Shown piece after piece: positions 6,347 through 55,350 of a DNA stretch of 64,000 bases. The position numbers and the translations under genes are program-made. The notes beneath the pieces are model-generated. The model had not been told where the DNA came from and ran no database searches. It worked only from the letters and a program-made list of their open reading frames with translations. Each line of letters opens with the position of its first letter. Positions within the stretch are counted from its first letter, which is position 1. The DNA is from Candidatus Cloacimonadales bacterium (GTDB lineage: Bacteria > Cloacimonadota > Cloacimonadia > Cloacimonadales > JAFGVF01): assembly GCA_963677495.2 (NCBI GenBank), contig CAXXOU010000004.1, positions 960,001-1,024,000 on the forward strand, given 5' to 3'.

Positions 6347-6423
6347 AACCACGGATGAACCACGGGTATTCCACGCCCAAACCACGCGAGTCGTGGTTAA
6401 CCCGCGGTTTACCCGTGGTCAAG
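6347..6423. repeat. 11-bp-phased head-to-head array (CCACG x4, then CGYGG x3)
   Basis: CCACG at 6349, 6360, 6371, 6382; CG(T/C)GG at 6392, 6403, 6414. Confidence 0.85.
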
Positions 6424-6525
6424 TATGAAAGAAAAGTAAAACAAAGGAGCGGATGGTATTCACTTAATGCTCCATAGAAACTCTAAGTGAATCTATTCTA
6501 TTAATTAGAAGATCTGATGGTCTAT

Positions 6526-8175
6526 TTAGAACGCAACGTTCTCGATTTTAGAATCATTTTTATATACGATAAGTTTAGTATTTCCCTTAAGAGTAGCATT
6601 AATAAATTCATTATTACTAAAAGTAGCATATAATGCTTTCTTGAAGTATGGTTTTGCAGGGAGAAGTTCTTGTGGTAACTCAGACTCAGGGACACGAAGT
6701 ATCTGATAAATACTATCTTTAAGTTCTTTTGCTGAGATTTGGACTAATGCTTTCGGTAAGTGTGGCTTATGAACATATAGACACCAGTCGTAACGTAAAG
6801 AATCCTTGCAATAATCAACAAACCCGGGATAATCCATAGAAAGATACTCAATTAATAAAGAATAGGCTAAATAGTAATCTTTTTTGGGTTCAAAACCTTT
6901 AGAGATGCAATGGCTCATCAGACCTTGGAAGAATCTGAAAGGGTTTTCGAGTCTAGGGGATAGGTAAGACATTGTATTTGGTAGTCGTTCACTATTATAA
7001 TAGAGATCAAAGAAATGAGTGAATTTATCCATATAAGTCAAATCCTTAAAGCTCATCCATTCATTCGAGAGAATCTGATAGGGAGGAGAACTCATAGACT
7101 TAATCTCATACTCTTCGGCATCTTCAGCCATTTCCGTACCTGGAAGAACTTTGAGAACTCCCAATTGCAAATATTGTGGAGCAGTACTGATTGCTTGATT
7201 AAAAGATTGCTCAAATGAATCCAAGTCTTCAAATGGCAATCCTGCAATTAAATCTAGATGAACATGGATGTTATCAAGTGTATTTAGTTGTCTTAGTATA
7301 GATTCAACCTTATCAAATCTACTTCTTCTTGAGACAGCATCTAATGTCCGAGGATTAGTTGTTTGCAATCCTATTTCAAACTGCAACAAACCTTTAGGCA
7401 TAGTCTTGAGTAAAGCAATATCTTCTTCAGTCACAATATCCGGTTTTATTTCGAAATGGAAAGTTGTATTAGGATTAAGTTCTGCTAAGTATGCCCATAC
7501 TTCTCTTGCGAATTCACGGTTTGCATTAAAAGAGCGGTCTACAAGTTTCACTACTCTTGGTTGGAAGCTAAGCAATTGCTTTAGTTCCTGTTTTACTACT
7601 TCAATCTCTTTGTACTCAAATGGGATATCATCACGAGATGATAAGCAAAAGCTACATTTATAGGGACAACCGCGACTGGCTTCATAATAGATGTATTTGC
7701 CCTTGAGCAGTTCTTTGTCGCTTTCTAAGTAGGGGAAAGGTAGTTCTTTGATGCTTATATGTTGCCCCTGAATTATTTCATACTCCCCGCAGAACTCGTT
7801 GTATGCAAGGTATTGAAATGCTAACTCACCGGGACCTACTATTATCTTATCTACTAAGTTAAGAGTTTCCTCCATAAATGGATTATCAAATGAAACTTCC
7901 GGTCCACCCATGACAATAGTACAATCCGGTTTGATAGCCTTTATCATAGGGGTAAGTTTAGAAATATAATCTGAATTCCATATATAAGCCGATAAGCAAA
8001 TAACATCACAATCAGACTCATTGATTAATGCTAAAGTCTCAAGAATATCTGCATTAATAGATGTTTCTTTAAGCTCTACTTCCATATCATAATCATAAAT
8101 CATTGTACGAAGGTAATAAAGAGCAAGGTTGCTATGTGTATAACGAGCGTTTATGCCTAATAAGAGTACTTTCAT
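6526..8175 (-). CDS. B12-binding radical SAM protein (DUF4080-type)
   Basis: MGGPEVS B12-binding region; SRGCPYKCSFC motif; start MKVLLL after AAAAGGA. Confidence 0.85.
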   Translation of the reverse strand: MKVLLLGINARYTHSNLALYYLRTMIYDYDMEVELKETSINADILETLALINESDCDVICLSAYIWNSDYISKLTPMIKAIKPDCTIVMGGPEVSFDNPFMEETLNLVDKIIVGPGELAFQYLAYNEFCGEYEIIQGQHISIKELPFPYLESDKELLKGKYIYYEASRGCPYKCSFCLSSRDDIPFEYKEIEVVKQELKQLLSFQPRVVKLVDRSFNANREFAREVWAYLAELNPNTTFHFEIKPDIVTEEDIALLKTMPKGLLQFEIGLQTTNPRTLDAVSRRSRFDKVESILRQLNTLDNIHVHLDLIAGLPFEDLDSFEQSFNQAISTAPQYLQLGVLKVLPGTEMAEDAEEYEIKSMSSPPYQILSNEWMSFKDLTYMDKFTHFFDLYYNSERLPNTMSYLSPRLENPFRFFQGLMSHCISKGFEPKKDYYLAYSLLIEYLSMDYPGFVDYCKDSLRYDWCLYVHKPHLPKALVQISAKELKDSIYQILRVPESELPQELLPAKPYFKKALYATFSNNEFINATLKGNTKLIVYKNDSKIENVAF

Positions 8176-8200
8176 TTTATCCTTTTGAGAGTATAAAAGA

Positions 8201-8225
8201 GGAGACATACAGCGTGTATGTCTCC
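8201..8225 (-). terminator. Stem-loop downstream of pepD
   Basis: GGAGACATAC-agcgt-GTATGTCTCC followed on the minus strand by TCTTTT. Confidence 0.6.
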
Positions 8226-8240
8226 ATAAATAATGGTTGG

Positions 8241-9701
8241 TTATAGTTCCTGCATGAGGTTTACGATTAAATCGTAAATCTTAGGAACATCACTTATCTT
8301 GAGTCTTTCATCAGGAGTATGTACATCGACAAGGTTAGGTCCAATCGATAACATATCAAGATTAGGGTATTTACTACCTATTACACCACATTCAAGACCC
8401 GCATGAATAACTTCAATTTTAGCATCTTTATTGTATAGCTTATGATAAGTAGCTTTTGCTTTTTCAAGAAGTGGAGATTCCCAAACGGGTTCCCAAGCAT
8501 CGTAAGGAGCTCTTTGTTCCATACGTGCTTTAGCAAGAAAAGCTAATCCTTGAATCTTCTCAGTTATATCATCAAGTGATGACATAATTGAACTTCTCTG
8601 ACTTGAAACTATTTCAACCTGGTCATCATGAGTTCTAAGAATAGCTAAGTTGTTAGATGTCTCAACTAAACCATCTACTTCAGGGCTCATTCTGTAAACA
8701 CCATGAGGGAAGGCAGCAAGAAGGTAAACCATTGGTGCCATTGTAGCTGTTGTGAAGCCCATTCTGTTGTCGTATTCAATCCTTTCTGATTTAAGGAATA
8801 GATCAGGGTCTGTTTTGCTGAACTCTCTTTGTAAGATTGTTTTGTGGTATTCAACCAAACCTTCAATGAATGCAGCATTAGTTGGTAAGGCATAGAATAT
8901 AGCTTCTGCTGTAGATGGGATAGCATTATGTGCTGTTCCACCTTCAACTTTTACAAGTCTTACTGAAACATTCTTATCCAGGAATAGGATTGTTCTAATA
9001 AGAACTTTAATCGCATTAGCAGTCTGTTTGTTTATCGTAATACCTGAATGTCCACCAACAAGTCCACCGACTGTGAGCTTGAATGGCACCATTACTTCCG
9101 GAACTTCTTCAAAATCAGCATCAAGATATAGTCTGGATTCTCCACCACCTGCACAACCTATAGTGAATACACCTTCCTCTTCCGAGTCAATATTGATTAA
9201 GTATGATCCTTTCAGAACTCCGGCTTCCAGTTCTGTTGCACCTGTAAGTCCGGTTTCTTCATCAACAGTAAAGAGTAGCTCCATAGCAGGATGTGGTACA
9301 TCTTCATCAATTGCCATTTGCATTGCAATTGCAAGAGCAATGCCATTATCAGCACCAAGTGTAGTGTTGTCAGCTCTAAGCCAATCACCTTCGATTATGT
9401 GTTTGATTGAATCTTTCATAAAGTCATGCTTGGAGTCGGGAGTTTTAACACATACCATATCCATATGACCTTGGAAAATCACACCGGGTTTATCTTCCAT
9501 GCCAGGTGTAGCAGGTACCCTGATTATAACATTGTTTACTTTATCTCTAATTGTCTCAAAGCCATGCTCCATTCCCCAGTCTGATAACCAGTCACTGATA
9601 GCATCTTCATGTTTTGATTTACGTGGAATCTTGTTAATAGCTTCGAATATATCCAGTATTTTCTGAGTTCTGGATTCACCCAATAAAATTGTATCTGCCA
9701 T
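8241..9701 (-). CDS. pepD: Aminoacyl-histidine dipeptidase (M20C)
   Basis: QGHMDMV, LGADNG, DEETG, IDSEEEG, GGHSG, HAGLECG, HTPDE motifs. Confidence 0.9.
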   Translation of the reverse strand: MADTILLGESRTQKILDIFEAINKIPRKSKHEDAISDWLSDWGMEHGFETIRDKVNNVIIRVPATPGMEDKPGVIFQGHMDMVCVKTPDSKHDFMKDSIKHIIEGDWLRADNTTLGADNGIALAIAMQMAIDEDVPHPAMELLFTVDEETGLTGATELEAGVLKGSYLINIDSEEEGVFTIGCAGGGESRLYLDADFEEVPEVMVPFKLTVGGLVGGHSGITINKQTANAIKVLIRTILFLDKNVSVRLVKVEGGTAHNAIPSTAEAIFYALPTNAAFIEGLVEYHKTILQREFSKTDPDLFLKSERIEYDNRMGFTTATMAPMVYLLAAFPHGVYRMSPEVDGLVETSNNLAILRTHDDQVEIVSSQRSSIMSSLDDITEKIQGLAFLAKARMEQRAPYDAWEPVWESPLLEKAKATYHKLYNKDAKIEVIHAGLECGVIGSKYPNLDMLSIGPNLVDVHTPDERLKISDVPKIYDLIVNLMQEL

Positions 9702-9771
9702 AGCATCCTCACTAAGTTTATTTTTTGATAGTAGAAATGAGGGTGTGGCTTATGTCAAGAATTATGTGATA

Positions 9772-10380
9772 TTAAGGATGAAGTAGACCACTCATAAAAC
9801 CAATTTTTACTCCTAGTGATATATGTTTTAGTTGAGATTCAAAATTATCACTAAGCATATTACTTGAGAACGTGTAATATATCTCAAACGTATAATCATG
9901 TATATGGCTCATCATTGAAACACTCCCACCGTAGGCAGTCTTGAAATTACTAATGTTAGGAGTATAAACATCATCTACTCGAGGATGGTAGTCAACCGGT
10001 ATGAATAAAACAGGATTCATACTAACATAGAATCGCTCTTTTACGGTTTCTTTTATCAAAAGTAGTATTCCTGTACTTAGATTAAGAGTGTGTACAATAT
10101 CATCCTGCCTAATCAGGAGCTTTTCACCGTAACCGGTTTTCATAGAATCGAAGTAGTGAGTACTACTAACTTCTACCTGTGTATTGAAGAATAGCTTCTT
10201 GTTAACATTTTTTACAAAGCCCATGGAAAGATTATAGTCATAGCTAGTAGTTTCGTAGTTATGATCATTACTTTGAGTAGCACCTCCGCCACCAACTTTA
10301 AAGGTAAATGATTGCTTTACTGAGAATAATGGTATAGAGAGGACTGCAAATAGTACTAGCAAACACGTTTTCTTAATCAT
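9772..10380 (-). CDS. Putative outer-membrane beta-barrel protein (divergent paralog 3 of 3)
   Basis: Signal peptide, alternating beta-strand pattern, similarity to the two upstream ORFs. Confidence 0.6.
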   Translation of the reverse strand: MIKKTCLLVLFAVLSIPLFSVKQSFTFKVGGGGATQSNDHNYETTSYDYNLSMGFVKNVNKKLFFNTQVEVSSTHYFDSMKTGYGEKLLIRQDDIVHTLNLSTGILLLIKETVKERFYVSMNPVLFIPVDYHPRVDDVYTPNISNFKTAYGGSVSMMSHIHDYTFEIYYTFSSNMLSDNFESQLKHISLGVKIGFMSGLLHP

Positions 10381-10394
10381 TAAACAACCTTAGC

Positions 10395-11072
10395 CTATCC
10401 TTTTGAAGCTTCTTTGTACAAGAACTGATATCCAATTGAAATACCAATTGAACATGGGCACCATCTCGCGTTGAAGTTACTACTTAAAGCATCATGTGCA
10501 AAGACTGAGTATACTTCAAAAAGAGCGTTCTTTGCACTTGCCATAAACCCAACTTTTATTCCAACAGTAGATGTGAAGTCAGATAGCTCAGGAGCTAGTT
10601 CATCATTTTTACTTGGAGAGAAGTTAATCGGCACACTGAACAAAGGCTCAAGAAATAGATAATAATCATTCTTTTTAACCTTTTTTACAGGTACTATTAG
10701 ATTTACACCATACTCAATGTTTGTGAGTTTATCGTCTTGGGACATTAAGACTTTATATAATCCTGATTCGATGTCTTCGTCGTCTGCACGACATGAGTTG
10801 GAAAACCTGAATGACCTGAGAGTAATCTCCGGAGCAATTACTATTTGCGAACGTATATCAAATGCTTTAGCGATAGAGAATGAATAATCTCCGGTTGTTA
10901 GCGAGTTTTCATATTCATTAGTGGTAAAGAAAGTTGTTGTATAATATGAATCAGTGTCTTGCACATAAAGCCCTAAACCTGCTTTAAAGAGTATGCCATT
11001 TAGTGCTAATGAAGGTATGCAGATAGTTAAGAAACAGATTACAAGAATCAATTTACTAATCAGTTTGTTCAT
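10395..11072 (-). CDS. Putative outer-membrane beta-barrel protein (paralog 2 of 3)
   Basis: Signal peptide; TDSYYT...SCRADDEDIESGLYK...IGYQF shared with 11104-11766. Confidence 0.65.
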   Translation of the reverse strand: MNKLISKLILVICFLTICIPSLALNGILFKAGLGLYVQDTDSYYTTTFFTTNEYENSLTTGDYSFSIAKAFDIRSQIVIAPEITLRSFRFSNSCRADDEDIESGLYKVLMSQDDKLTNIEYGVNLIVPVKKVKKNDYYLFLEPLFSVPINFSPSKNDELAPELSDFTSTVGIKVGFMASAKNALFEVYSVFAHDALSSNFNARWCPCSIGISIGYQFLYKEASKG

Positions 11073-11103
11073 TTACTTATACCATTACTTATAGAATTAT
11101 GAA

Positions 11104-11766
11104 TCAATCTTGGAACTGGTATCCAATCATTACTCCGAAAGAGTTGGGAGAGTACTCAGCATTGAAATCATCTTTCAATATGTTCGAGGTGAGTGTTGTA
11201 TATAATTCAAAAACTGCATGTTTTGTGATAGCCATTACAGATACTCTTCCTCCTACTGCCGGTTGCAAATCAGATATTTCAGGTGATAGGTAATCATTCT
11301 TTTCAGCAACATACTTAACCGGGATGGACAATAAAGGTCCAAAGCTCATACAATAATGAGTATTGGCCATTGTTACAACTGGGAAAACAGTATTTCCGGC
11401 AAGCTCTATCAATGAGATATTATCGTGTTTTCTTACTAGGAGTTTATACTTACCGGATTCTAAATCTTCATCATCAGCTTTGCACGAAGTGTTGAAACGT
11501 ATAGATCTATAAGTCAGTTCCGGCGCAAACAGTGCTTTCTTATAGAAAGGGAAACTTGCTGACACTGCCACAGAATAATCAAAGTTGCCTAAAGTGTTTT
11601 CACTTTCAAAAGTACTGAATATAAAATGATCAGTGTAATAGGAATCTGTGTGTTGAAAGAATAATCCAACCCCACCTTTTAGGATTAGATTATCAAATGC
11701 AACTAAAGGAGTAATAACTACAAGAAAACCAACAATAACAAAGAATCTCATTTGTAAATATTTCAT
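11104..11766 (-). CDS. Putative outer-membrane beta-barrel protein (paralog 1 of 3)
   Basis: Signal peptide; TDSYYT...SCKADDEDLESGKYK; C-terminal IGYQF. Confidence 0.65.
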   Translation of the reverse strand: MKYLQMRFFVIVGFLVVITPLVAFDNLILKGGVGLFFQHTDSYYTDHFIFSTFESENTLGNFDYSVAVSASFPFYKKALFAPELTYRSIRFNTSCKADDEDLESGKYKLLVRKHDNISLIELAGNTVFPVVTMANTHYCMSFGPLLSIPVKYVAEKNDYLSPEISDLQPAVGGRVSVMAITKHAVFELYTTLTSNILKDDFNAEYSPNSFGVMIGYQFQD

Positions 11767-11997
11767 GATGCAACGGTAATAGATATATTTTTACTCGTCA
11801 ATATTTTTTTATTTGAAATCACCTTCATAATTTAAATATCGCAAGTAGTTTTAATATCAAACTGTCAATATAAAAATGGTTGTCCTCGATGCGATAATCA
11901 GAGCGTGATTAGTAGCTATTCAGTATCAAGGACAACCAGAGAGAGGGTTAGTATATTCAATATGACATACCTTTCAGGAAATCCCTTCACATTAAAT

Positions 11998-12030
11998 AAA
12001 AAAAAGGGAAGGTTGTTTCCAACCTTCCCT
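11998..12030 (-). terminator. Intrinsic terminator of the PFOR gene
   Basis: AGGGAAGGTTG-tttc-CAACCTTCCCT with a long U tract on the minus strand. Confidence 0.85.
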
Positions 12031-12047
12031 GAATTTATCTAACTGAA

Positions 12048-15000
12048 TTAGTCAGCTAATTTCTTGTATTGTACATATCTGTCTTCAAGGAACTTCTTAA
12101 GTTCAGCATGATACTGTTCATACTTCTCCGGGAAGTTTCTCTTAAGAGATGTGTATCTCTTTTCGCTATCGATGAACTCAAGTGGATCAGCCTTAGGTTC
12201 TCTTGAATCAAGAACGAATGGGTTTTTGCCTTCTTCTTTGAGTCTTGGGTCGTATCTGTAGTTAATCCAATAACCACACTCAACAACAGCTTTTTCAGCT
12301 TTCTGACTGTTACCCATATCGATACCGTGGTTGATACATGGAGCATAAGCAAGGATGATTGAAGGTCCCGGATAAGCTTCAGCTTCCTGGATAGCTTTAA
12401 GAGCTTGAGCCTTATTGGCACCCATTGAGATTGAAGCAACGTATACATAACCATAGCTCATCATCATCATACCAAGGTCTTTCTTAACTGTTGGTTTTCC
12501 TGACTCAGCAAACTTAGCAACTGAACCAAGAGGAGTAGCTTTAGAAGCCTGTCCACCAGTGTTAGAATAAACCTCTGTATCCATAACAAGGATGTTAACA
12601 TTCTTGTTAGATGCCATAACGTGATCAAGTCCACCGTAACCGATGTCATAAGCCCAACCGTCACCACCGAAGCACCAAACACTCTTGTCTACAAGGTAGC
12701 TTTGAAGTTCGATACATTTGCGTACGATAGGTTCAGTAGTAGCATCTGCTTTTTCAAGAAGCTTAGGAAGAAGTCTTTGGATCTCAGCAGCATCTGCTTT
12801 AGCCTGCTCATCAACAGCATCCCAATTATCAAGTCTTCTATTGAATACTTCAATGCAACTGTCGCATGTAAGAAGTGCAGTAGCTTTTTCAAGACTAGCT
12901 CTAAGAAGTTTTCTATTAGAATCAACAGCTAAGCGGAAACCGAATCCGTATTCTGCATTATCTTCAAACAGTGAGTTAGCCCATGTAGGACCATGACCAT
13001 TTTTATTCTTACAGTAAGGGATTGTTGGGAAAGTACCACCCCAGATTGATGAACAACCTGTAGCGTTAGCAACAATCATTCTGTCACCGAAGAGCTGAGT
13101 AAGAAGTTTAACATAAGGAGTTTCACCACAACCTGCACATGCGCCTGAGAACTCAAGCAATGGCTGTTTGAACTGTGAAGTCTTAATGTTGATGTTCTTC
13201 ATTTTACCAAGTACATCAGTTGGTAAAGTCTCGAAGAATTCGTAGTTAGCCTGTTCACCGGCAACTCTTTCTTCTTCGATAGGTTTCATTTCTAGAGCAG
13301 CTTTCGGACATTCGTTTACACAAACACGGCAACCCTGACAGTCATCAATATAAACTTGAAGTTTATACTGAAGATCAGTTTCACCCATAGCATTAAGAGT
13401 GTTGAATGTTTCAGGAGCGCCGTTCATATCATCATTAGCAATAAGTTTAGGTCTGATTGCAGCGTGAGGGCAAACTACTGAACACTGGTTACATTGGATA
13501 CATTTTTCAGCAATCCAATGTGGTACGAATGGTGCAACACCACGTTTCTCAAGTTTAGTTGTAGCAGAAGGTACGAAACCATCATAAGGCATTTCTGAAA
13601 CCTTGATGTCATCACCTTTTTCTCTCATAATAGGTTCGATAACTGTTTTTGTGAACTCATCAGCATCGTCAGCAACAAGTTTCTTCATTGCAACGAACTC
13701 AGAACCCATATCAGCAGGAATCTTAATTTCTACAAGAGCAGCTTCAGTTTTATCAACAGCTTCGATGTTCATCTTAACAATCTCGTCACCTTTCTTTGAG
13801 TATGACTTGATAATAGCGTTTTTGATGAGCTCGATAGCTTTATCTTTAGCAAGAACACCGGAGATAATGAAGAAAGCAGCCTGCATTACAGTATTAATTC
13901 TTCCACCAAGTCCAACACCTTCAGCGATTTCAAGAGCATTGATGTTGTAGAATTTAACTTTCTTTTCAACGATTGTTTTCTGCATATCTTCTGTAAGGTT
14001 AGCAAAGATCTCTTCCTGAGTCCAATGTGAGTTAAGAAGGAATACACCACCCTCTTTAATCCCTTCAAGAAGGTCATAACGACCGATGAAAGCAGGATTA
14101 TGTACAGCGATGAAGTCAGCGTTCTGGATAAGATACTGAGAACGGATAGGAGTGTCACCGAATCTTAAGTGACTACGTGTGATACCACCAGATTTCTTTG
14201 AATCGTACTGGAAGTAACCCTGAGCATATTTGTCAGTGTTGTCACCAATGATTTTGATACTGTTTTTATTAGCACCAACAGTACCGTCTGATCCAAGACC
14301 CCAGAACTTACAACTGATAGTTCCTTGAGGAATAGTGTTGATTTTTTCTGTAACAGGAAGTGAAAGGTTAGACACGTCATCTTCGATACCAACAGTGAAA
14401 CCATGGAAACCATCGTTATCAAGGTGGTTATAAACAGCTTTAACCATTGAAGGTGTAAACTCTTTTGATGAGAGACCATAACGTCCACCGATAATTGTGT
14501 AATCTTTACCTTTAAGAGCTGCAACTACGTCAATATATAAAGGCTCGCCAATTGAACCCGGTTCTTTAGTTCTATCAAGAACAGCTATTTTCTTCACTGA
14601 TTCTGGAATAGCATTAACGAAAGCATCGATTGAGAATGGTCTGTATAAACGAACTTTTAAGAGTCCGTATTTTGAACCGTTTGCATTAAGGTATTCAATT
14701 GTTTCATCAATAGTTTCACAACCGGAACCCATAGCAATGATAATTGATTCAGCATCTGGAGCACCCACATAATCAAAGAGATGGTAGTTACGACCAATCT
14801 TTGTTGCAAGTTCATCCATGTAAGCTTGAACCTGAGCAGGAGCAGCTACATAAGTATTGTTAGTTGTCTCACGACCCTGGAAATAAACATCAGGATTCTG
14901 AGCACCAACTTTTACACGTGGGTTTTCAGGATTAAGTGCACGAGCTCTGAAGTTTTCTACATGCTTCATATCAAGCATAGAACCAAGTGTATCATAATCG

Positions 15001-15560
15001 ATAACTTCAGCTTTCTGAATTTCGTTAGAAGTTCTGAAACCATCAAAGAACACGAGGAATGGAATTTCTGTTTTAAGTGTTGCAAGGTTTGCAACAACAG
15101 AAAGGTCCATAACTTCCTGAACTGAGTTACATGCGATCATCGCATAACCTGTGTTTCTTGCTGACATCACGTCTGAGTGGTCACCAAAGATTGAAAGAGA
15201 TTGTGCAGCTAAAGAACGAGCTGAAACGTAGAATACAGTTGGAAGCATTTCACCTGCAATCTTATGCATGTTTGGAAGCATAAGCATAAGCCCTTGTGAA
15301 GCAGTAAATGTACTTGTTAATGCACCGGCTGATAATGAACCGTGTACAGCACCTGCAGCACCGGCTTCTGATTGCATCTCTACAACATCAACCTGTGTTC
15401 CGAAGATATTCTTTAAACCATTAGCAGACCAAGCATCAGCGAGTTCTCCCATGGTTGAAGATGGAGTAATGGGGTAAATAGCAGCAACATCACTAAACGC
15501 ATACGCGATGTGAGCAGCGGCCATGTTTCCTTCCATTGTCTGTTTCTTGAATTGTGCCAT
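12048..15560 (-). CDS. nifJ: Pyruvate:ferredoxin (flavodoxin) oxidoreductase
   Basis: YPITPS, SEAGAAG, two CxxCxxCxxxCP motifs, SGACAGCGE, GGDGWAYDIG; ATG at 15560 best spaced from AAAAGGAG. Confidence 0.95.
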   Translation of the reverse strand: MAQFKKQTMEGNMAAAHIAYAFSDVAAIYPITPSSTMGELADAWSANGLKNIFGTQVDVVEMQSEAGAAGAVHGSLSAGALTSTFTASQGLMLMLPNMHKIAGEMLPTVFYVSARSLAAQSLSIFGDHSDVMSARNTGYAMIACNSVQEVMDLSVVANLATLKTEIPFLVFFDGFRTSNEIQKAEVIDYDTLGSMLDMKHVENFRARALNPENPRVKVGAQNPDVYFQGRETTNNTYVAAPAQVQAYMDELATKIGRNYHLFDYVGAPDAESIIIAMGSGCETIDETIEYLNANGSKYGLLKVRLYRPFSIDAFVNAIPESVKKIAVLDRTKEPGSIGEPLYIDVVAALKGKDYTIIGGRYGLSSKEFTPSMVKAVYNHLDNDGFHGFTVGIEDDVSNLSLPVTEKINTIPQGTISCKFWGLGSDGTVGANKNSIKIIGDNTDKYAQGYFQYDSKKSGGITRSHLRFGDTPIRSQYLIQNADFIAVHNPAFIGRYDLLEGIKEGGVFLLNSHWTQEEIFANLTEDMQKTIVEKKVKFYNINALEIAEGVGLGGRINTVMQAAFFIISGVLAKDKAIELIKNAIIKSYSKKGDEIVKMNIEAVDKTEAALVEIKIPADMGSEFVAMKKLVADDADEFTKTVIEPIMREKGDDIKVSEMPYDGFVPSATTKLEKRGVAPFVPHWIAEKCIQCNQCSVVCPHAAIRPKLIANDDMNGAPETFNTLNAMGETDLQYKLQVYIDDCQGCRVCVNECPKAALEMKPIEEERVAGEQANYEFFETLPTDVLGKMKNINIKTSQFKQPLLEFSGACAGCGETPYVKLLTQLFGDRMIVANATGCSSIWGGTFPTIPYCKNKNGHGPTWANSLFEDNAEYGFGFRLAVDSNRKLLRASLEKATALLTCDSCIEVFNRRLDNWDAVDEQAKADAAEIQRLLPKLLEKADATTEPIVRKCIELQSYLVDKSVWCFGGDGWAYDIGYGGLDHVMASNKNVNILVMDTEVYSNTGGQASKATPLGSVAKFAESGKPTVKKDLGMMMMSYGYVYVASISMGANKAQALKAIQEAEAYPGPSIILAYAPCINHGIDMGNSQKAEKAVVECGYWINYRYDPRLKEEGKNPFVLDSREPKADPLEFIDSEKRYTSLKRNFPEKYEQYHAELKKFLEDRYVQYKKLAD

Positions 15561-15653
15561 TCTCATCTCCTTTTCGAGTTTTATTTGTTGTTTATATATA
15601 TCAAAAAATCTTCCATACTTTCGTTTATGACAGCGAAATTATAAACCGTAAAG

Positions 15654-15693
15654 TGTCAATTATTTTCCGTGTTTTCTGTGATGATTTTCACAA
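15654..15693 (-). promoter_or_regulatory. TGTGA-N6-TCACA palindrome (CRP/Fnr-family or Rex-type operator) upstream of the PFOR TTGACA box
   Basis: TGTGAtgatttTCACA at 15677-15692; TTGACA on minus strand at 15659-15654. Confidence 0.6.
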
Positions 15694-15900
15694 TAATCTT
15701 AACAATTATCTTTAACACTTAAGCAACAATCCTATAAAATACTATATGTCATCTTGTTATCAGGTTTTGAAAAGTCATTAAATGGCTATCAATCAACTAT
15801 GAATTTGTTTTTCACTATAGCTTCTGCTTAAATCTTATTCTAACTTCAATCATAAAGATACCATCATATGCTTGTTCATTGTTCTCCCAATCTAAACTAT

Positions 15901-16480
15901 CTAACAAAACCGTGTTATCCCACTGTTTTCCCACTGTGCACGCACTGTGCACCCAGTGAAACAGTGGGTTGGCAGTGCCTTCACAGTGGGGACACAGTGC
16001 AAACACAGTGCGTTGATAGAATGTGCAGTAAAAGAGAGCTAAAAGGACAATAAACGCGGCTAAGTTATTGTAAATGGCACTGTGTATATCTCTTTCGGAC
16101 TTGCTCCGCAGCGAAGCGTGGGGCGAGAACGAAAACTTAGGAAAAGAGACTTCGAAGTACATTTCAGGAAGTCCGTTGCTTTATCAGGCCGACAAACTCC
16201 CTGAAATGCCGTAAGTTGTTGCAAATCGCGCTGTGTATGTATTCGGATATTGTTGCAATAGTGACCAAAGGGAGATAGGTGAATAGTGAAAAGTAGCAAT
16301 AATCCAATTCGTGACAAGACGCACCAACGCAGATGGTGCACTCCATAGTTGTAAGTTATTGCAAATCGCACTGCAAATGTCATCCTGAGTGGAATGAACG
16401 TAATGAAAAGAAGTGAATGAAGTCGATGGGTCGCTCGGATGGCTTTAGTGGATTTATGATAGAGTATTGACTTATCTTTT
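15901..16480. repeat. Modular non-coding mosaic, copy 1 (order A-B-C-D), with 11-bp-phased array at 15910-16010 and linkers at 16061, 16212, 16352
   Basis: Block-wise inverted similarity to 40770-41405; linker TAAGTTRTTGYAAATSGCRCTG x3. Confidence 0.9.
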
Positions 16481-16645
16481 TATGTTTTCCTATCGGAAAA
16501 TTGCTCTTCTTTAGTTGGGAGACTAAAGTTATCGGAGAGGTACTTCGACTGCGTTCGCAAAACTCACTTCGCTCAGTATGACGTGTTGGTACTCGGATTT
16601 GCATCAGCAAATCCCTTAACATTGTCACCCTGAGGGGAATGAAGG
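16378..16645. repeat. GTCATCCTGAG...CTTCGCTCAG(G/T)ATGAC-type palindromic repeats
   Basis: TGTCATCCTGAG at 16378 can pair with CTCAGTATGAC near 16572-16582; TGTCACCCTGAG at 16623; related ends at 40610 and 40857-40872. Confidence 0.6.
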
Positions 16646-16740
16646 CAGTTAAACGAATAGAAGTTGTTTATATATTGTTTGACAATATAATGCCCTAAAT
16701 TGTCTTGGAATATAAAATAAGATTTAGAATGAGGAAATTG

Positions 16741-17736
16741 ATGAAGCGTAAAGAAGTCGTATCTTTAGTACTTTTGATACTAGTGTTGGGTTTAGGGTTT
16801 TGGCAATATAAGAACAGGAAATATACAGATAAACGCAGTAGAATTATGTTAGATACTATCGTTGAGATATCAGTATCATCTCAACACAAAGATATTCTCC
16901 CGATAATTGAGAAAGGTTTTACGTTAGTTGAGCATTATGAGCAGAAGTTCAGTGAATATAGAGATAGTTCTCTAGTTTGGACTATTAATCATTCAAACGG
17001 CCATCCTGTAGATATAGATGCAGAAACTTATGAACTTCTTAAATACGCAGAACAGCTTTATAAAGATACGGATGGTGCTTTTGATGTGACAGTCGGTACA
17101 GTTGTGAATGCATGGGATTTTGATAATAAAAAAGTTCCTACAGAGACAGAACTGGCAGAAGCACTTAAGTACGTTGGCTTCGATAAGATTAAATATAATG
17201 AAAAAGAGATAATCGTACCTGCAGGAACAAAGTTAACATTTGGAGCCATAGCTAAAGGTTACATTTTAGATAGAGTTGCTGAAGAACTTGCTAAAGAGGA
17301 TATAGTTTGTGGATATATCACAACTAGAAGTAGCTATAGATCTTTTGGTGCTGAAAGACGTATTCAAAGGGTCGGTATCCAGCATCCAAGAAAGTTGAAT
17401 GAACTTGTTTCTATATTGAAACTAAAAGAGCAAGCGATTGGAACTTCCGGGGATTATCAAAGATATTTTGAGATTGATGATGTACGTTATCATCATATAT
17501 TGAATGCAAAAACCGGTAAACCTGTAAGAGATGTATTCTCGGTTACAGTAATAGCTGGAAATGCCTTTATCGCTGATGGATTGTCTACAGCTGTGTTTGT
17601 TATGGAACCTCAGAAAGCAATTGATTACATAAAATCAGTTGATAACTGTGAAGCAGTGATTTATCATCAGGATGGGGAAGAGATTATAGCTCTAAAAACT
17701 CTAGGAATGAAAGACTTATTAGAAGATGAAAAATAA
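16741..17736 (+). CDS. apbE: FAD:protein FMN transferase
   Basis: GAFDVTVG, GAIAKGY, GTSGDYQR, YHHILN, ADGLSTA motifs. Confidence 0.9.
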   Translation: MKRKEVVSLVLLILVLGLGFWQYKNRKYTDKRSRIMLDTIVEISVSSQHKDILPIIEKGFTLVEHYEQKFSEYRDSSLVWTINHSNGHPVDIDAETYELLKYAEQLYKDTDGAFDVTVGTVVNAWDFDNKKVPTETELAEALKYVGFDKIKYNEKEIIVPAGTKLTFGAIAKGYILDRVAEELAKEDIVCGYITTRSSYRSFGAERRIQRVGIQHPRKLNELVSILKLKEQAIGTSGDYQRYFEIDDVRYHHILNAKTGKPVRDVFSVTVIAGNAFIADGLSTAVFVMEPQKAIDYIKSVDNCEAVIYHQDGEEIIALKTLGMKDLLEDEK

Positions 17737-18502: not shown

Positions 18503-18507
18503 AACTA

Positions 18508-21042: not shown

Positions 21043-21052
21043 GGTTTATATA

Positions 21053-25871: not shown

Positions 25872-26147
25872 CTGGGAAGCATTTGCATATCAGTTTTAAC
25901 AGCTATTTCACTCTCACTCCTCTGCCATAATTACTATTCATTAGATATCTCAATCTTATCAAATTCGAGTCTAAAACCTGTTAAAGAATAACTACATTTC
26001 AAAAGGGATTCAACAGGTGTCTCATTCGAGATGGATGATAATTGTAGCAGAGCAGTGACGGTTTCATGATTTTGAGATTCATTTAAAAGGTTTCATATTT
26101 TATTCTGCTGGATCTCTGCTGAAAGTCTGATATCCACACCTACTTTA

Positions 26148-26220
26148 CTCCCGAGCCTCCCGGGGGCCTCTCGGGGATAGGCGGGGGAGGGCCCCGAGTG
26201 GTCCCCGTGTGCGACGGGAG
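26148..26220. repeat. GC-rich, approximately 11-bp-phased array within a CTCCCG...CGGGAG hairpin
   Basis: GCCTCCCGGGG, GCCTCTCGGGG, ATAGGCGGGGG, then CCCCG at 26192 and 26203. Confidence 0.65.
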
Positions 26221-26428
26221 AAAATACCAGAATTCCATCAGACATTCCTCAAACGATTTCATACTATTATTCACTATCTTACTATTATTCTTAAATACCT
26301 TAACTCCCAATTTGCACCTAATCCAATTGCTGTCAATGGCAGTGAGAAATGGTACACGATGGCAGTGAAAAGTGGTACAAAACTGCCAACCTTTAAAAAT
26401 GACTACTTCAAGACAGTTTGGAGTAGGT

Positions 26429-27904
26429 ATGATTGGAGTAGAAGTGTATCATTCAATAAAAACTATGCATAAGCAAGGGCATAGTCAGCGTAAGATCGCA
26501 GAGGAGTTGTCTCTATCAAAGACAACAGTAGGTAAATACATAAATATGACACTTGATGAGTTCATGGAACTAATAAACAATAGCATTCGTGAAAGCAGTT
26601 TTGCCATATGTGAGCAATATGTCCGCGAAAGGCTTAGCAAATATCCACGATTAAGAGCTAGTGTACTATATTTAGAAGTTAAGAAAAAGTTCCCTGAGAT
26701 AAAAGCAAAAGACAGAGCTTTCCGAGATTTTGTTCGTAAGCTAAAGCAGACTTATCCTGTCGATAAATACCGTAATTATGCAGTAATCGAGACGGCTCCC
26801 GGTGTTCAGGTTCAAGTTGATCCAGGTGAGATGAAAGTAGTTTTGGGTAATAAACGTCAAAGAGTTTATTTTATAGTTTTTGTGCTTTCCCACTCGCGTC
26901 AAAGCTATGTCCATTGGAGCACAACACCATATAACACATCAAGGTTTATTGAAGCTCATCGTGAAGCTTTTATCTATTTTGAAGGTATCCCTTCAGAGTG
27001 TGTTTACGACCAGACAAAGCTTGTAGTAATACAGGAACGCTATCGGGAAGTAATCTTAAATAATCAGTTCCATCAGTTTGCAGCAAAAACGGGCTTTCAT
27101 CCTCATGTATGCGAAGGCTATGATCCACAAAGCAAGGGTAAAGTAGAGCGTAATGTCTCAGAAGTAAAGCATGGCTTTATGTATGGCAAAGAGTTCAAAG
27201 ACCTGGCAGACCTGCGTTCACGCGGACTTGAGTGGCTTTTACACTTTAACGGCAGAACCCATGGCACAACCCGTAAAGTACCATCAGAAGTATGGCAAGA
27301 AGAGAGGTTAAAGCTAAAAGATATTCCAGAGTTTATCTTCACTTTAGAAGTTCGTAATGCAGATAAAACAGGCTTAATCTCGTATGAGGGTAATAAGTAC
27401 TCTGTTCCATTAGAGTATCAGCGAAAACAGGTATATGTGCAAAAAGAAAAGAGCACTTTAGTGGTGATGGATATTTATACAAGAAAGGAAATCTGCCAAC
27501 ATGAGCTATGCACAGAAAAAGGCAAAATCATCAAAAACACTAATCATTATCGGGATTTTACGGTAGTGCTACAAGAGCTTATTGAGCGAGTAAAGGATGA
27601 GATGAGTGAATATATCCAAGGAGAAGAACTAATCCAGAGGCTTGTTAATGATAACCCTAAAATAGCAAGGGATCAGTTGAGAGCCTTAAGCAAGTTTAAG
27701 CGTAACTATGAAACAGATGTATGGGAGTCAGTGCTTCCTGAGGTAATGACTCTTTCGCATGTAAAGGCAACAGCCATAGAGAAGCTTCTGAATGCAAAAG
27801 TAAGACAAATGAAGCTAAATGAATTATCAGAATCAGAACCACAACAAGACTCAGAGAGTTCATTAATAGAGCGCTCATTAGATGACTACATGAAGGTGTT
27901 ATAA
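26429..27904 (+). CDS. istA: IS21 transposase
   Basis: N-terminal HTH; DDE region QVDPG, VYDQTK, KGKVER; ATG 26429 after GGAGTAGG. Confidence 0.92.
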   Translation: MIGVEVYHSIKTMHKQGHSQRKIAEELSLSKTTVGKYINMTLDEFMELINNSIRESSFAICEQYVRERLSKYPRLRASVLYLEVKKKFPEIKAKDRAFRDFVRKLKQTYPVDKYRNYAVIETAPGVQVQVDPGEMKVVLGNKRQRVYFIVFVLSHSRQSYVHWSTTPYNTSRFIEAHREAFIYFEGIPSECVYDQTKLVVIQERYREVILNNQFHQFAAKTGFHPHVCEGYDPQSKGKVERNVSEVKHGFMYGKEFKDLADLRSRGLEWLLHFNGRTHGTTRKVPSEVWQEERLKLKDIPEFIFTLEVRNADKTGLISYEGNKYSVPLEYQRKQVYVQKEKSTLVVMDIYTRKEICQHELCTEKGKIIKNTNHYRDFTVVLQELIERVKDEMSEYIQGEELIQRLVNDNPKIARDQLRALSKFKRNYETDVWESVLPEVMTLSHVKATAIEKLLNAKVRQMKLNELSESEPQQDSESSLIERSLDDYMKVL

Positions 27905-27905
27905 G

Positions 27906-28637
27906 ATGATAGAGATAACTAAAACATACATCAAAAGGGCTCGTTGTACTCATATTTTGAATACTCTTGAAAGTGCAGTTTTAGAAGCAGAGAAACAGAA
28001 TATGACTTATCTGGAGTTCGTACATTATCTATTTGAAAAAGAGAACTCAGGAAGGAATCAAACCAATATCAACAGAAGACTTAAACAGGCTCACATCCCG
28101 GTAATAAAGACCTTTGATGAGTTCGACTATGCTTATCAACAAGTAATAACCAAAAGACAAGTAAAGGAGTGGAAGAACTTTGTCTGGCTGGAGCAGAGGA
28201 GGAATATAATTTTAATGGGACCTCCGGGAGTAGGTAAGACTCATGTTGCAACAGCACTCAGTTATGAAGCAATAAAGGCAGGATATAAGGTGGTGTTTTA
28301 TAATCTGAACAACCTTATCGAAGAACTTGTACTAGCTGAAGCAGATAACAACATAGATAAATATCTAAGCAATATAGCCAAGAATGATCTGATAGTTATA
28401 GATGAGATGGGGTATCTTCCTCTCCAGACAAAGGCAGCTAATCTGTTCTTTAGACTCATCCATCTCTTATACGAATTTAGATCAGTAATCATAACATCGA
28501 ATAGGTTGTTTAATGAATGGGGAGCTATTTTTAACGACAATGTGATAGCAACTGCTATTCTTGATAGATTACTCCATCACTCACAACCAATTACAATGCT
28601 CGGAGACAGCTTTAGACTAAGGAATTTTCAAAAATGA
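27906..28637 (+). CDS. istB: IS21 helper AAA+ ATPase
   Basis: GPPGVGKT, LIVIDEMG, ITSN, ILDRLLHH. Confidence 0.95.
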   Translation: MIEITKTYIKRARCTHILNTLESAVLEAEKQNMTYLEFVHYLFEKENSGRNQTNINRRLKQAHIPVIKTFDEFDYAYQQVITKRQVKEWKNFVWLEQRRNIILMGPPGVGKTHVATALSYEAIKAGYKVVFYNLNNLIEELVLAEADNNIDKYLSNIAKNDLIVIDEMGYLPLQTKAANLFFRLIHLLYEFRSVIITSNRLFNEWGAIFNDNVIATAILDRLLHHSQPITMLGDSFRLRNFQK

Positions 28638-28705
28638 AGACTGTACCATTTTTAAATGCCAAACTGTACCAATTTAAAATGCCATTGACACCAATTGCCA
28701 TCCAT

Positions 28706-28751
28706 CATAACGAGTTTCTAACGGGGAGCTAACGGGAAGCTAACGGGGAGC
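28706..28751. repeat. 11-bp tandem array (CTAACGGGGAG)
   Basis: TAACG at 28708, 28719, 28730, 28741. Confidence 0.85.
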
Positions 28752-28808
28752 GATTGAGTAGTAAGAAGATTAAATTGGATATCGAAGCATGGATTGTATC
28801 TACTTTTC

Positions 28809-40769: not shown

Positions 40770-41405
40770 AAGATAAGTCAATACTAGAAATGTTATTTCA
40801 CTAAAGCTAACCGAGCTATCCATCGACTTCATTCATTCCGTTTCTCTCATTTCAGCTTCGCTCAGGGTGACATATCAGGAGCAGTCACCAGTGCGAGTTT
40901 ACGAGCTTGGGGAAATGCTGAAATTACAATAATCTATCTCTAAACAAACATGTTGCATTTCAGGGAGTTTGTCGGTCTGTTAAGGCAACGGACTTTCTAA
41001 AATGCTCTTTGGAGTCGGCATCTTATGGTTTTCGTCCTCGCCCCACGCTTCGCTGCGGTGCAAGTCCAAAAAAGGGCATATTTAGTGCAATTTGCAATAA
41101 CTTACAACTATGGAGTGCACCATCTGCGTTGGTGCGTCTTGTCACGAATTTGATTATTGCTACTTTTCGCTATTCGCCCATCTCCCTTCGGTCGCTATTG
41201 CGACAGCTAATGAAATGCATACGCAGTGAGTTTCCCAACAACTTAGCTACATTTCATGCCCCTTTTGCTCTCTTTTACTGCCCTTTTTATCATCGCACTG
41301 TGTACGCACTGTGACCCCACTGTGAAGGCACTGCCAACCCACTGTTTCACTGGGTGCACAGTGCGTGCACAGTGGGGAAACAGTGGGTTGACTGTGTTTT
41401 GGTAG
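40770..41405. repeat. Modular non-coding mosaic, copy 2 (inverted; order A-C-B-x-D), with 11-bp-phased array at 41296-41396
   Basis: Reverse-complement blocks of 15901-16480; linkers at 41224-41245, 41083-41104 and a degenerate one at 40889-40909. Confidence 0.9.
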
Positions 41406-41897
41406 ATGGATTATATAAACTAGGTAGTAGCATTTGTATGAAAACCTGAAAAGGAGTTAGTATAACAGAAAAGCCAAACATTGCAATCAATGTGTCCTAA
41501 TTAACAAGTCACTTACATAATGTATACATAATTAACTGAATATCAGAGTAATAGAACTAAAATCAAGCATAATTAGAAGATTATCGAAAACCATGTATAT
41601 TGAAGTTATATAGGGAGTTATGGATTTATAGTGATTGGCTAAGTGAATATAAGTTAGAAGGCTAGAAGCCAGTTATCATGGGCATCTATAGAAAAAAAGA
41701 TGCAAAAAATGATAGTGCTAACGAATAAAACTAGCTGAAATTTCCAGCAAAAAGAGGTAAGAGTGTGTTTGGTAGGGGTAAAAATAAAAAATGCGTAAAA
41801 TCGCCGTTTTTTATTGACAGCAATATCTAACTCTATAATTTGTAGCTATAATTTAACATTGAAAATTTATAAACAATAACCTATATTTTGAAAGTGA

Positions 41898-53324: not shown

Positions 53325-53327
53325 TCA

Positions 53328-53774
53328 ATGAGTAAAGTTAAACTTGGTAATAGTATAGCTTCAATACATCCGATTGAGAGGGGGAAGAAACTCAAACGTC
53401 CTTTGATTGGTAGTTTTATCCAAGCTGGTTTTCCTTCTCCCGCAACTGACTATATTGAGAAGTCACTTGATTTGAATGAATACTTGATTGAGCATCCCGC
53501 TGCAACATATTTTATCAGAGTTGATGGTTATTCAATGATAAATGCAGGAATCAATCCGGATGATATTCTTATTGTTGATCGAGCTATAGAAGCATCAAAC
53601 AACAAGATTGTTATTGCTGTTTATGATGGAGAACTAACAGTGAAACGATTAGCTGTAAGAAAGGGAATCTACTATCTCGTTCCTGAGAATCCTCAGTTTG
53701 ATGAGATAAAGATAACCGGAGAGGTTGAGTTTTCGATTTGGGGTGTTGTAACCTTCATTATTCATAAGGCCTGA
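53328..53774 (+). CDS. umuD: DNA polymerase V autoproteolytic subunit
   Basis: AGFPSPA cleavage region, GYSM (Ser), TVKRL (Lys); no LexA DNA-binding domain. Confidence 0.9.
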   Translation: MSKVKLGNSIASIHPIERGKKLKRPLIGSFIQAGFPSPATDYIEKSLDLNEYLIEHPAATYFIRVDGYSMINAGINPDDILIVDRAIEASNNKIVIAVYDGELTVKRLAVRKGIYYLVPENPQFDEIKITGEVEFSIWGVVTFIIHKA

Positions 53775-53775
53775 C

Positions 53776-55059
53776 ATGCCTTTGACTCCTGATAGTAGAA
53801 TCTATGCTCTAGTTGATTGTAATAGCTTCTATGCTTCATGTGAACGAGTTTTTCGACCTGATTTAAAAGGAAAACCTATTGCTGTCCTTTCAAACAATGA
53901 TGGTTGTATTGTTGCTAGATCTGCAGAGCTAAAGGCTCTGGGAATTCCAATGGGGGCTCCCGTATTTAAGTATGAAGATAAAATCACTAGAGCTGGTGGA
54001 GTAATTTTCTCTTCAAACTATGAACTATATGCTGATCTTTCCAATAGAGTCATGACAGTTCTGGATCGATTTACCCCAGAGCTTGAGATATACTCAATTG
54101 ATGAAGCCTTTTTGCTTCTAACAGGATTTAAAGATAGAGACCTTATTAAACTTGGGACGGAAATAAAAGAAACTGTGTTTCAATGGACAGGGATACCGGT
54201 TTCAGTTGGAATAGGTTCCACAAAGACACAAGCTAAAGTAGCAAACCATATCGCTAAGAGATATATGAAATTCAATTACGTTTTCTCAATGTATAAGCAT
54301 CCAAAGATAGATACAGTTCTAGACTATGTTCCTGTAGATGATATCTGGGGAATAGGCAGGCAATATGCTAGATTTCTAAATCAAAATGGTATAACTACAG
54401 CAAAATTACTTAGAGATGCAGATTTGCAATGGATCCGAAAATATATGACAGTAGTAGGAGCAAGAACTGTTTTAGAACTGAAGGGAATAGATTGTCTTGA
54501 ACTGGATATGGTTGAAGCTCCCAAGAAAGGAATCGTGTCGTCACGCTCCTTTGGTAAACCGGTTTCCAACCTGGAGGAACTTGAGGAAGCTGTCTCTACA
54601 TATATGACAAGAGCGTGCGAAAAACTACGAAATCAGAATTCAATAGCTTCGTATATTACAGTATTTCTGGGAACAAATCGATTTAAACCGGAAGCTCAGT
54701 ATTCAAACTCTTTGACCACAAAACTTCATGAGCCAACTGCATATACTCCAAAACTTATCGAAACCGGTATTCAGTTGTTAAAAGCTATATATAAACCTCA
54801 ATTTAATTATAAAAAAGCAGGAGTTATGCTAACCGGTATCGTAAATCAATTCAATGTTCCACCTGATGCCTTCGAACCAGCTTATGTTGATGATAAAACT
54901 AAAACAATTATGGATACGGTGGATCGTCTAAACAAAATACTAGGTCGTGATACCTTATACTACGCTAGTAACGGTGACAAACAAGAATGGCAAATGCGTA
55001 GAGAAAAACTCTCTCCTAAATATACTACAAGCTGGGACGATCTACCAACTGTTAAATGA
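53776..55059 (+). CDS. umuC: Y-family DNA polymerase V catalytic subunit
   Basis: DCNSFYASCE, SNNDGC, YSIDE, WQMRREKLSPKYTT.W tail. Confidence 0.92.
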   Translation: MPLTPDSRIYALVDCNSFYASCERVFRPDLKGKPIAVLSNNDGCIVARSAELKALGIPMGAPVFKYEDKITRAGGVIFSSNYELYADLSNRVMTVLDRFTPELEIYSIDEAFLLLTGFKDRDLIKLGTEIKETVFQWTGIPVSVGIGSTKTQAKVANHIAKRYMKFNYVFSMYKHPKIDTVLDYVPVDDIWGIGRQYARFLNQNGITTAKLLRDADLQWIRKYMTVVGARTVLELKGIDCLELDMVEAPKKGIVSSRSFGKPVSNLEELEEAVSTYMTRACEKLRNQNSIASYITVFLGTNRFKPEAQYSNSLTTKLHEPTAYTPKLIETGIQLLKAIYKPQFNYKKAGVMLTGIVNQFNVPPDAFEPAYVDDKTKTIMDTVDRLNKILGRDTLYYASNGDKQEWQMRREKLSPKYTTSWDDLPTVK

Positions 55060-55264
55060 TAAAGTGTTCCTAATCTATTTCAAACAAATCTTCTCTGAAT
55101 TTATACCCTCTTTAAACAAAGCTTAAAGAACTGCATAATAAAATATTAGCGATAATTCAGCCAGCTGATATCTAAGCTGTTCTTCAACTATTTAAATAAC
55201 TGTTTTCATGCCTATTTTAATGTTCATTTTACATATTAACCACCAATATGCCCCTTAACAAAAA

Positions 55265-55350
55265 CAAGGAATTACGTTGGATCCACCAAGGAGCCACCAA
55301 GGACCCTCCTAGGCGAAGCCCAAAGTTATTCACATCGCGTGGATAACTTT
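55265..55350. repeat. 11-bp-phased CAAGG array followed by an inverted pair of DnaA-box-like 9-mers
   Basis: CAAGG at 55265, 55287, 55298; CTAGG at 55309; TTATTCACA 55326-55334; TTATCCACG on minus strand 55346-55338. Confidence 0.65.

Follow-up and report, generated by a model that had tools for sequence, protein, structure and literature searches.

Intergenic 11-bp lattices and their apparent pairing with a family of small paralogous proteins in Cloacimonadota

Why should short GC-rich words recur once every 11 bp at six separate intergenic positions of one bacterial chromosome? The question is raised by a stretch of 64,000 nucleotides from a Candidatus Cloacimonadales bacterium (the window; contig CAXXOU010000004.1 of assembly GCA_963677495.2), in which a reading made from the sequence alone had described six such arrays, hereafter lattices. 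The genome (3.41 Mb in 4 contigs, 99.5% complete) is labelled G000, and G001, G002 and so forth designate other genomes. Judged by their sequences, phased protein-docking sites are the best reading of these tracts. They belong to dispersed repeat families, most of which have a copy upstream of their own member of a set of paralogous genes for a protein of 150 amino acids that we call P150; this name, the family names F1-F15 and the motif name R were coined here, and "solo" denotes a gene-less copy of an element. The reading that we prefer, with a probability of about 0.55, is that each tract is a copy, lacking the gene, of the upstream element belonging to a unit made up of a lattice and a P150 gene of one particular clade (clade B), and that most families have a cognate paralog which is likely to be their phased, cooperative reader. 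The association of phased repeat families with a paralogous small-protein family is real, widespread and, as far as can be told, undescribed: the literature searched, outside which most subscription journals and supplements fall, contained no paper on the elements, on P150 or on DUF6266, a second protein family that is discussed below.

An 11-bp period in the window and in the genome

The six tracts were found where the sequence-only reading had placed them, with their cores in 11-bp phase. The fraction of matching positions per tract is 0.55-0.75 at lag 11, compared with 0.10-0.48 at lags 9, 10, 12 and 13, and shuffling gives p ≤ 1e-4 for each of the six, the windows having been picked by the sequence-only reading itself. 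CCACG occurs at 6349, 6360, 6371 and 6382, CACTG at 15921, 15932 and 15943, CAGTG over 15962-16006, TAACG over 28708-28741 and a CAAGG-type core over 55265-55309. The tract at 26155 is the least regular, as claimed, and those at 15910 and 41296 are indeed inverted copies within one family, with 84% identity across 198 bp.

The same period dominates the whole genome. When three phased GC-rich 5-mers are counted as a cluster, there are 201 clusters at lag 11 versus 0-13 at the remaining lags from 5 to 32, save for lag 22 (79 clusters); lag 33 has 8. A second genome-wide period is found at lag 7, with 13 clusters. The lag-11 clusters in intergenic DNA number 173, against 0 in each of five local shuffles, so that the enrichment check that had been proposed gives a signal far above the shuffled background. 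All but one of the clusters (200/201) lie outside open reading frames (ORFs) of at least 150 aa, although such ORFs make up 84% of the genome, and the tracts are not remnants of coding sequence. Neither Rfam nor tRNA searches matched the tracts. Nor are they ends of insertion sequences (IS): an IS21-family element separates the 26155 and 28708 tracts, both of which lie outside it, and it was inserted into the element that carries the latter with an 8-bp target duplication; therefore neither tract is an IS end.

Profile searches of the genome place 306 loci under 15 family labels. The dispersed families represented in the window have 6-67 copies each and their elements are approximately 80-185 bp long, several families measuring 140-185 bp. 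Each tract being a copy of such a multi-copy family, the idea of locus-specific cis-elements of the neighbouring genes had to be given up. The proposal that the period rather than the sequence is conserved is accurate between families, which have the period alone in common, but not within them, where the sequence is kept too.

Lattices upstream of clade-B P150 genes

An all-against-all comparison revealed 22 paralogs of P150, a protein without Pfam match, and their phylogeny separates a clade A (n = 7) from a clade B (n = 15). Lattices were scored within 1,300 bp upstream of these genes, and it was with the scores already in hand that the division by clade became apparent: a lattice precedes 14/15 clade-B genes and 0/7 clade-A genes (14/22 in total), while one clade-A gene passes under a second lattice score. 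The background is 38% of the 779 genes with a large upstream gap, in comparison with which the clade-B excess has a binomial probability of 1e-5. Among the control Y1 transposase genes, two of 14 have a lattice upstream and one of 14 downstream. The families are also distributed unevenly: 11 different families precede 13 independent P150 genes when copy-number-weighted draws expect 7.4 (P 0.005), and rare families are over-represented ahead of clade-B genes (6/13, P 0.013). F1, F3 and the CCAAGG subfamily, all represented in the window, each have their own clade-B gene in this genome (L015, L020 at C4:453465 and L022, respectively), and the cognate genes of F1 and CCAAGG in G001 are L064 and L059.

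P150 is present in 95 of the 151 Cloacimonadota genomes searched. The taxa of the P150 clusters, together with a 66% homolog named Ca. Zophobacter franzmannii, place the present genome in this phylum. In all, 109 loci (20 from this genome and 89 from elsewhere, the latter drawn from the top-ranked 150 of ~600 matches) were scored within 900 bp upstream. A lattice was found in 32/59 non-A loci and 1/50 clade-A loci, with no more than one case at lags 10, 12 and 13 or in downstream DNA; outside this genome, the contrast is 21/45 versus 0/44. In the held-out genomes G002 and G003, the seven intact clade-B genes with upstream DNA all have a lattice (7/7; an eighth gene has no upstream DNA), and the held-out cores mostly resemble those of the nearest paralogs. 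Five loci in G005, namely one intact clade-A-like gene and four weak or broken matches, have no lattice. Several groups of sister proteins have cores in common (L015/L064, L022/L059, L018/L025/L060, L043/L078/L101, L103/L105 and L069/L074). In 0.8 Mb of G001, 21/27 lattices match one upstream of that genome's own clade-B genes, four match those of the present genome and two match neither. Lastly, a family-blind pattern that detects CAC/CCC cores only was run across the 151 genomes, a genome passing if its lag-11 matches numbered 20 or more and were no fewer than double those at lag 10; 22 genomes pass, all 22 carry P150, and 0/56 gene-less genomes pass. The link between lattice and gene is, in our opinion, very probably real.

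Lattice and gene remain associated when genomes are compared, and one recent duplication has copied them jointly. The duplicated segment measures 822 bp, starts immediately outside an F14 lattice and stops at the stop codon of the gene; its two copies are 96.8% identical and have unrelated flanks. For the orthologous lattice-gene pairs of 10 genes in G001, the upstream neighbour is different in five, the same in two and lies in an unmappable flank in three. Between G000 and G001 (median protein identity 83%), a lattice is present in G000 only at 4/38 adjacent syntenic junctions and in both genomes at none, one G001-only row being an artefact of a zero-length gap. Gaps of at least 300 bp are synteny breaks in 24/28 cases, versus 3/250 for gaps below 100 bp (G000 vs G001:C1:900001-1700000). 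Operon order is heavily shuffled between the two genomes. Lattices do not behave as rearrangement hot spots, since breaks affect 17/21 large gaps with a lattice versus 7/7 without one in the G001 comparison, and the genomes are too diverged for this comparison to give exact insertion ends. Clean excision was not seen across 5800-25400 in the contigs of one sample, which collapse on repeats. G000 has no match to the serine recombinase profile PF00239, the control being positive in 12/14 genomes.

The surroundings of the P150 genes suggest another explanation. Six of the seven clade-A genes have a clade-B gene or remnant as their back-to-back neighbour (C1:774894-782349, C3:291415-297694, C4:777579-783024, 1465698-1474728, 1498355-1504079 and 1040941-1041890; L356-L361). 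Several of these slots contain methylase, ABC-3C, HD-CE or NA37 genes, and their content differs between G000 and G001 (L353, L354). Such bookended slots are not general: in G014, where six neighbouring proteins were scanned, the interval between the A and B genes consists of housekeeping genes. The lattices could then be independent miniature elements, moved in trans by a known transposase and piling up beside dispensable genes such as P150 genes flanking defence slots. There are 14 matches to Y1 transposases in the genome and 17 copies of IS21, 11 of the latter at most 400 bp from an array; P150 loci abound in other repeats; methylase, ABC-3C and HD-CE genes are enclosed by back-to-back clade-A and clade-B genes; and inverted ends, albeit weak, are found in F2, F4, F5, F11 and F14. 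Nevertheless, the clade-A genes occupy the very same slots with no lattice in any of the 44 loci outside this genome, Y1 genes are seldom accompanied by one, the families ahead of clade-B genes are enriched in rare ones, target duplications are missing, and lattices lie upstream and not downstream of the genes. An accumulation of this sort therefore seems quite improbable.

Elements of the window and the possibility of a host reader

The features of the window are listed in Table 1. The IS21 copy, which is outside the lattice system, covers the place where the F6 element was interrupted. F6 has no cognate gene in this genome, and a weakly similar core precedes a clade-B gene of G002 (L378). 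A C-family copy elsewhere (C4:469461) is joined to the 3' third of a dead clade-B gene. The ORF at 16060-16383, across the hairpin cassettes, is judged spurious because it has no Pfam match and sits on repeat DNA.

Table 1. Lattice elements, associated repeats and selected genes in the window (positions of the 64,000-nt stretch)
Feature	Positions	Strand	Remarks
Solo F3 element, CCACG lattice flipping to CGTGG	6347..6421	.	Quasi-palindrome of ~80 bp; ~40 genome copies
Solo F1 element	15894..16088	+	CACTG/CAGTG lattice 15910-16010, linker rich in purines, 28-bp motif R at the end 16061-16088; 67 copies
Pair of non-coding hairpin cassettes, each terminated by R	16089..16379	+	R at 16212-16239 and 16352-16379; R copies spaced 151 and 140 bp apart
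Solo C-family element, CCCGAG/CGGG lattice	26125..26243	+	Short inverted ends; 8 copies; holds the 26155 tract
IS21-family element	26331..28690	+	istA 26372-27904, istB 27906-28637; 1 of 17 full copies
F6 element, TAACG/CCCGTTA lattice	28691..28784	+	Lattice 28708-28751; left end across the IS21 at ~26300-26330; 29 copies
Clade-A P150 gene, 153 aa	32928..33389	+	Lattice-less clade; 1 of 22 intact genome paralogs
Hairpin cassette and second R, behind inverted F1	41077..41217	-	R at 41077-41104; R-to-R spacing 141 bp
Second solo F1 element	41218..41410	-	Inverted relative to 15894-16088; lattice 41296-41396, R 41218-41245
Solo CCAAGG-subfamily element	55249..55352	+	Lattice 55265-55313; ends in head-to-head DnaA-box-like pair 55326-55346; 6 copies

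Apart from the weak inverted ends mentioned above, the family consensus ends present F3 as a single palindrome. A GTAG/CGTC tag at the foot of a palindrome was found by eye in none of them, and the scripted test for it was not position-specific. Candidate target duplications are just 2-bp matches of chance size. Arrays do not act as paired left and right ends, as neighbours at less than 1 kb number 10 versus 11.5 expected. The IS21 copies have target duplications of 6-9 bp, and several of them lie within an array; for another IS, with a 144-aa ORF, the nearest upstream array is a CCAAG array in 6/6 copies. Other features of the window are a beta-barrel gene (32031-32621) flanked by 7-bp tandem repeats (31776-31806 and 32620-32660) and three tandem ORFs of 202-225 aa without Pfam match (9772-11766).

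F1 is narrowly distributed: a DNA search found it only in its own genus (4/41 genomes) and a metagenome scan gave 0 matches. Its terminal motif R has 130 copies in 73 chains in this genome, 65 of which start at an F1 element, and in these chains R alternates with non-coding hairpin cassettes, whose halves are interchangeable and come from a small repertoire. The R spacings fall into two classes one helical turn apart, with 51/57 at either 138-142 bp (27/57) or 150-152 bp (24/57). In G001, a single R without a chain is seen in 6/18 of the F1 copies listed, some rows being oriented oppositely. R was also considered as a Xer/dif site, but by eye no core match to the dif consensus was present. Head-to-head pairs of DnaA-box-like sequences number 75 in the genome, all of them with a 3-bp spacer, and 73 belong to families F4, F11 and F14; 96 of the 154 perfect DnaA-like boxes fall in catalogued elements.

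These observations would fit a scenario in which a single host protein recognises every family by its phased GC-rich patches, be it gyrase by wrapping, DnaA as a filament or some nucleoid protein, while the clade-B genes are carried along and the elements multiply as ordinary selfish repeats. Besides the DnaA-like boxes, the CC or CAC common to many cores, the 140-185 bp size of several families, the clustering of R spacings and the F1 copy located 500 bp before gyrB all speak for it; gyrase wraps a motif of approximately 130 bp. Yet a host reader would leave unexplained why lattices precede clade B but not clade A, and why 11 families are paired with 13 genes with an exact core per family. 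Moreover, most families (F1, F2, F3, F5, F6) have no DnaA pair. We consider this scenario unlikely.

Candidate readers, DUF6266 and known phased systems

If the cognate paralogs read the lattices, P150 itself should offer some indication. Its confident structure model (predicted local distance difference test score, pLDDT, 96.7) has an extended N-terminal arm with a beta-hairpin followed by three long and two short helices. Gly14, Arg33, Asp68 and Tyr72 are near-invariant, and the net charge is +5.5 (basic) in clade B and -0.4 (neutral) in clade A. Sequence searches of solved structures gave nothing significant, and no fused forms were found among 8,000 longer candidates, which is weak evidence. 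Y1_Tnp, the profile of HUH Y1 transposases, has no match among 130 P150 homologs, and the most conserved His column reaches 26% in 299 rows; that P150 itself cuts DNA is doubtful. No downstream partner emerged: the neighbours of the 22 paralogs are mutually unrelated and 12/22 are on the opposite strand. As another candidate reader, HTH_17 has three matches. A TATA-N-GAGG motif precedes 23 of the 109 P150 genes versus 7 in shuffles (e.g. at ~32797-32813 in the window) and is probably a shared promoter.

The basic, extended arm ahead of a helical body in the model is also what a virus-like or satellite remnant might have, with the clade-B protein serving in a coat or in packaging and the lattice as a nucleation or packaging signal. 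Of the named Atlas clusters, the one that matches best (0.89) is hypothetical and mostly viral, which is only a lead in this direction. By contrast, predicted viral structures gave no match at E 0.001, the PHROG matches of P150 are weak, no conserved gene lies downstream of P150, and the duplicated 822-bp unit holds one gene; a viral origin thus appears to have little probability.

The sequence-only reading had supposed the elements to be specific to a lineage. In fact, the 11-bp form is spread across Cloacimonadota and is also found upstream of Bacteroidota genes encoding DUF6266 (PF19781). This family is multi-copy in 3/5 genomes selected for a CCTTG array. Thirty DUF6266 loci were returned and 26 scored, four fragments being dropped; 10/26 have a lag-11 score above 50 upstream and none has one above 16 downstream. 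An unselected draw found DUF6266 in 3/120 further genomes, with an upstream lattice at 3/4 of those loci. Three DUF6266 lattices, searched for in five genomes, have solos in their own genome only (15, 6 and 83 matches, both strands). In four genes of G160 (L244, L251, L253, L259), the upstream signal is at lag 10, not 11. DUF6266 and P150 resemble each other in being multi-copy, in having lattice-bearing and lattice-less groups, flipped upstream 11-bp lattices and same-genome solos, and in starting alike, with G-x-x-G-K. They differ in length (~210 versus 150 aa), and P150 has no PF19781 match. Profile-profile comparisons gave E values of 0.13 and 0.005 (probability 7%), the profile-sequence ranks are not significant, and an Atlas score of 0.84 is a lead. 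Homology of the two families is plausible but unproven from these sequence comparisons. The P150 profile had no match in the proteins beside 80 CCTTG loci, nor in five other genomes reached via them.

In clostridial genomes, a conserved array of four 11-bp units separates a histidine-kinase gene from an ABC-transporter operon (L121, L151, L163, L164, L166, L169, L173, L175, L182 and L196); this array is probably an OmpR/PhoB-type operator. Could the tracts of the window likewise be such operators of neighbouring genes, or act as hairpins of single-stranded DNA or RNA? F1 and F3 flip about their centre and can fold back, 11-bp CCTTG arrays in other phyla are located between genes of two-component systems and of ABC transporters, and PhoP binds cooperatively to 11-nt repeats (PMC2275107). 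Nonetheless, the F4 and F6 lattices have no flip, F3 and F4 have no orientation bias relative to genes, solos are gained or lost at syntenic junctions, and there is no Rfam match. This alternative strikes us as very improbable.

No named family of such form had been recognized when the tracts were described. Named 11-bp phased systems do exist (R1 parC, PHO boxes and the IS1535 ends), but the tracts belong to none of them. RAYT Group 3 (bioRxiv 10.1101/2022.05.22.493013) is alike in having several divergent small-gene copies per genome, each with its own dispersed repeats, and gene-less copies that outnumber the genes. The association of a divergent gene copy with its own repeats is found here as well (11 families for 13 genes; 21/27 lattices in G001). 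RAYT is, however, an HUH Y1 transposase, whereas P150 has neither a Y1 match nor a conserved His pair; the repeats here are 80-185 bp lattices of 11-bp units located upstream only, not doublets of short palindromes, and the Y1 genes of this genome are not tied to lattices. R1 parC (PMC2241845) spans ~160 bp, has its 11-bp repeats arranged in two sets of five and precedes the gene for ParR, a small protein that binds these repeats cooperatively and represses its own promoter. The likeness lies in the 11-bp repeat sets upstream of a small-protein gene, although the arms are often inverted here and direct in parC. Furthermore, parC is single-copy, plasmid-borne and served by the ATPase ParM, whereas there are up to 67 chromosomal copies of the present elements and no conserved partner gene after P150, for which the ribbon-helix-helix fold of ParR is not established. 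At the ends of IS1535, of the IS607 family (PMC6188088), short helically phased motifs nucleate a cooperative filament and there is no target duplication, but the transposase TnpA is a serine recombinase, which P150 is not. PHO boxes (PMC2275107) contain as many as six 11-nt repeats, at which binding is cooperative and sensitive to phase; they and the OmpR/PhoB sites are locus-specific operators of one regulator, whereas here we find copied elements with conserved flanks, many cores and flipped arms. DDE-type miniature inverted-repeat transposable elements (MITEs) are likewise a poor match, no target duplication of at least 3 bp having been found in eight families. The lattices fail at least one defining feature of each of REPIN/RAYT, parC/ParR, IS607, DDE-type MITEs and PHO boxes. 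The system resembles RAYT/REPIN in its organisation and ParR/parC in its construction, but is a member of neither.

What is observed can be stated plainly: dispersed families, a lattice-before-gene order restricted to clade B, a distinct family ahead of almost every paralog, the persistence of lattice and gene together, and a parallel in DUF6266. In the reading that we favor, each basic clade-B protein would read its own word once per helical turn and form a phased oligomer on the upstream element. That it binds its own lattice is, judging from sequence, slightly more probable than the contrary. It may also repress its own promoter, solos may derive from units through deletion and copying, and the protein would help to regulate or copy the unit and its solos, units and solos multiplying on a one-gene-one-repeat basis. 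A far broader claim, that of a minimal self-propagating system across Cloacimonadota and Bacteroidota in which new-fold P150/DUF6266 paralogs read distinct 5-7-bp words per turn, polymerise and copy units and solos, is speculative and rather unlikely.

Several points weigh against the reading of the tracts as gene-less copies of P150-B units. Five of the 17 family labels (F6, F7, F8, F10, F13) have no cognate gene here, and where there is one the lattice-to-gene distance ranges over 90-1,270 bp and the orientation varies, F1 for example not being oriented alike at L015 and L064. A strong lattice is missing in 27/59 non-A rows, kin among the 109 loci are not independent, two held-out loci score at another lag too, and six DUF6266 loci, all from one genome, have lag-10 scores of 20-35. 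Shared cores also arise when a gene and its upstream DNA are co-inherited. In G001, 6/27 lattices match none of the genome's own genes, and no F2 solo was found in the 0.8-Mb sample despite an F2-linked gene. Large gaps break synteny with or without a lattice; therefore changed neighbourhoods do not prove transposition. Target duplications of at least 3 bp are absent in eight families, although short ones could escape notice because the element ends are ragged. As for the protein, the structural search gave no significant match, nothing reaching Z 5 (best Z 3.9 and 4.0), and ribbon-helix-helix domains recur weakly (Z 2.7-3.9, residues 45-107).

The pairing provides a candidate, testable function for two large uncharacterised families, P150 and the Bacteroidota DUF6266, and accounts for ~300 of this genome's intergenic repeats. 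Should every paralog indeed read a word of its own at an unvarying pitch of 11 bp, the system would amount to a code in which specificity changes while the polymer geometry is retained, and to a natural library of orthogonal protein-lattice or DNA-docking pairs. If, in addition, the unit moves without a known transposase, it would represent a new kind of minimal mobile element.

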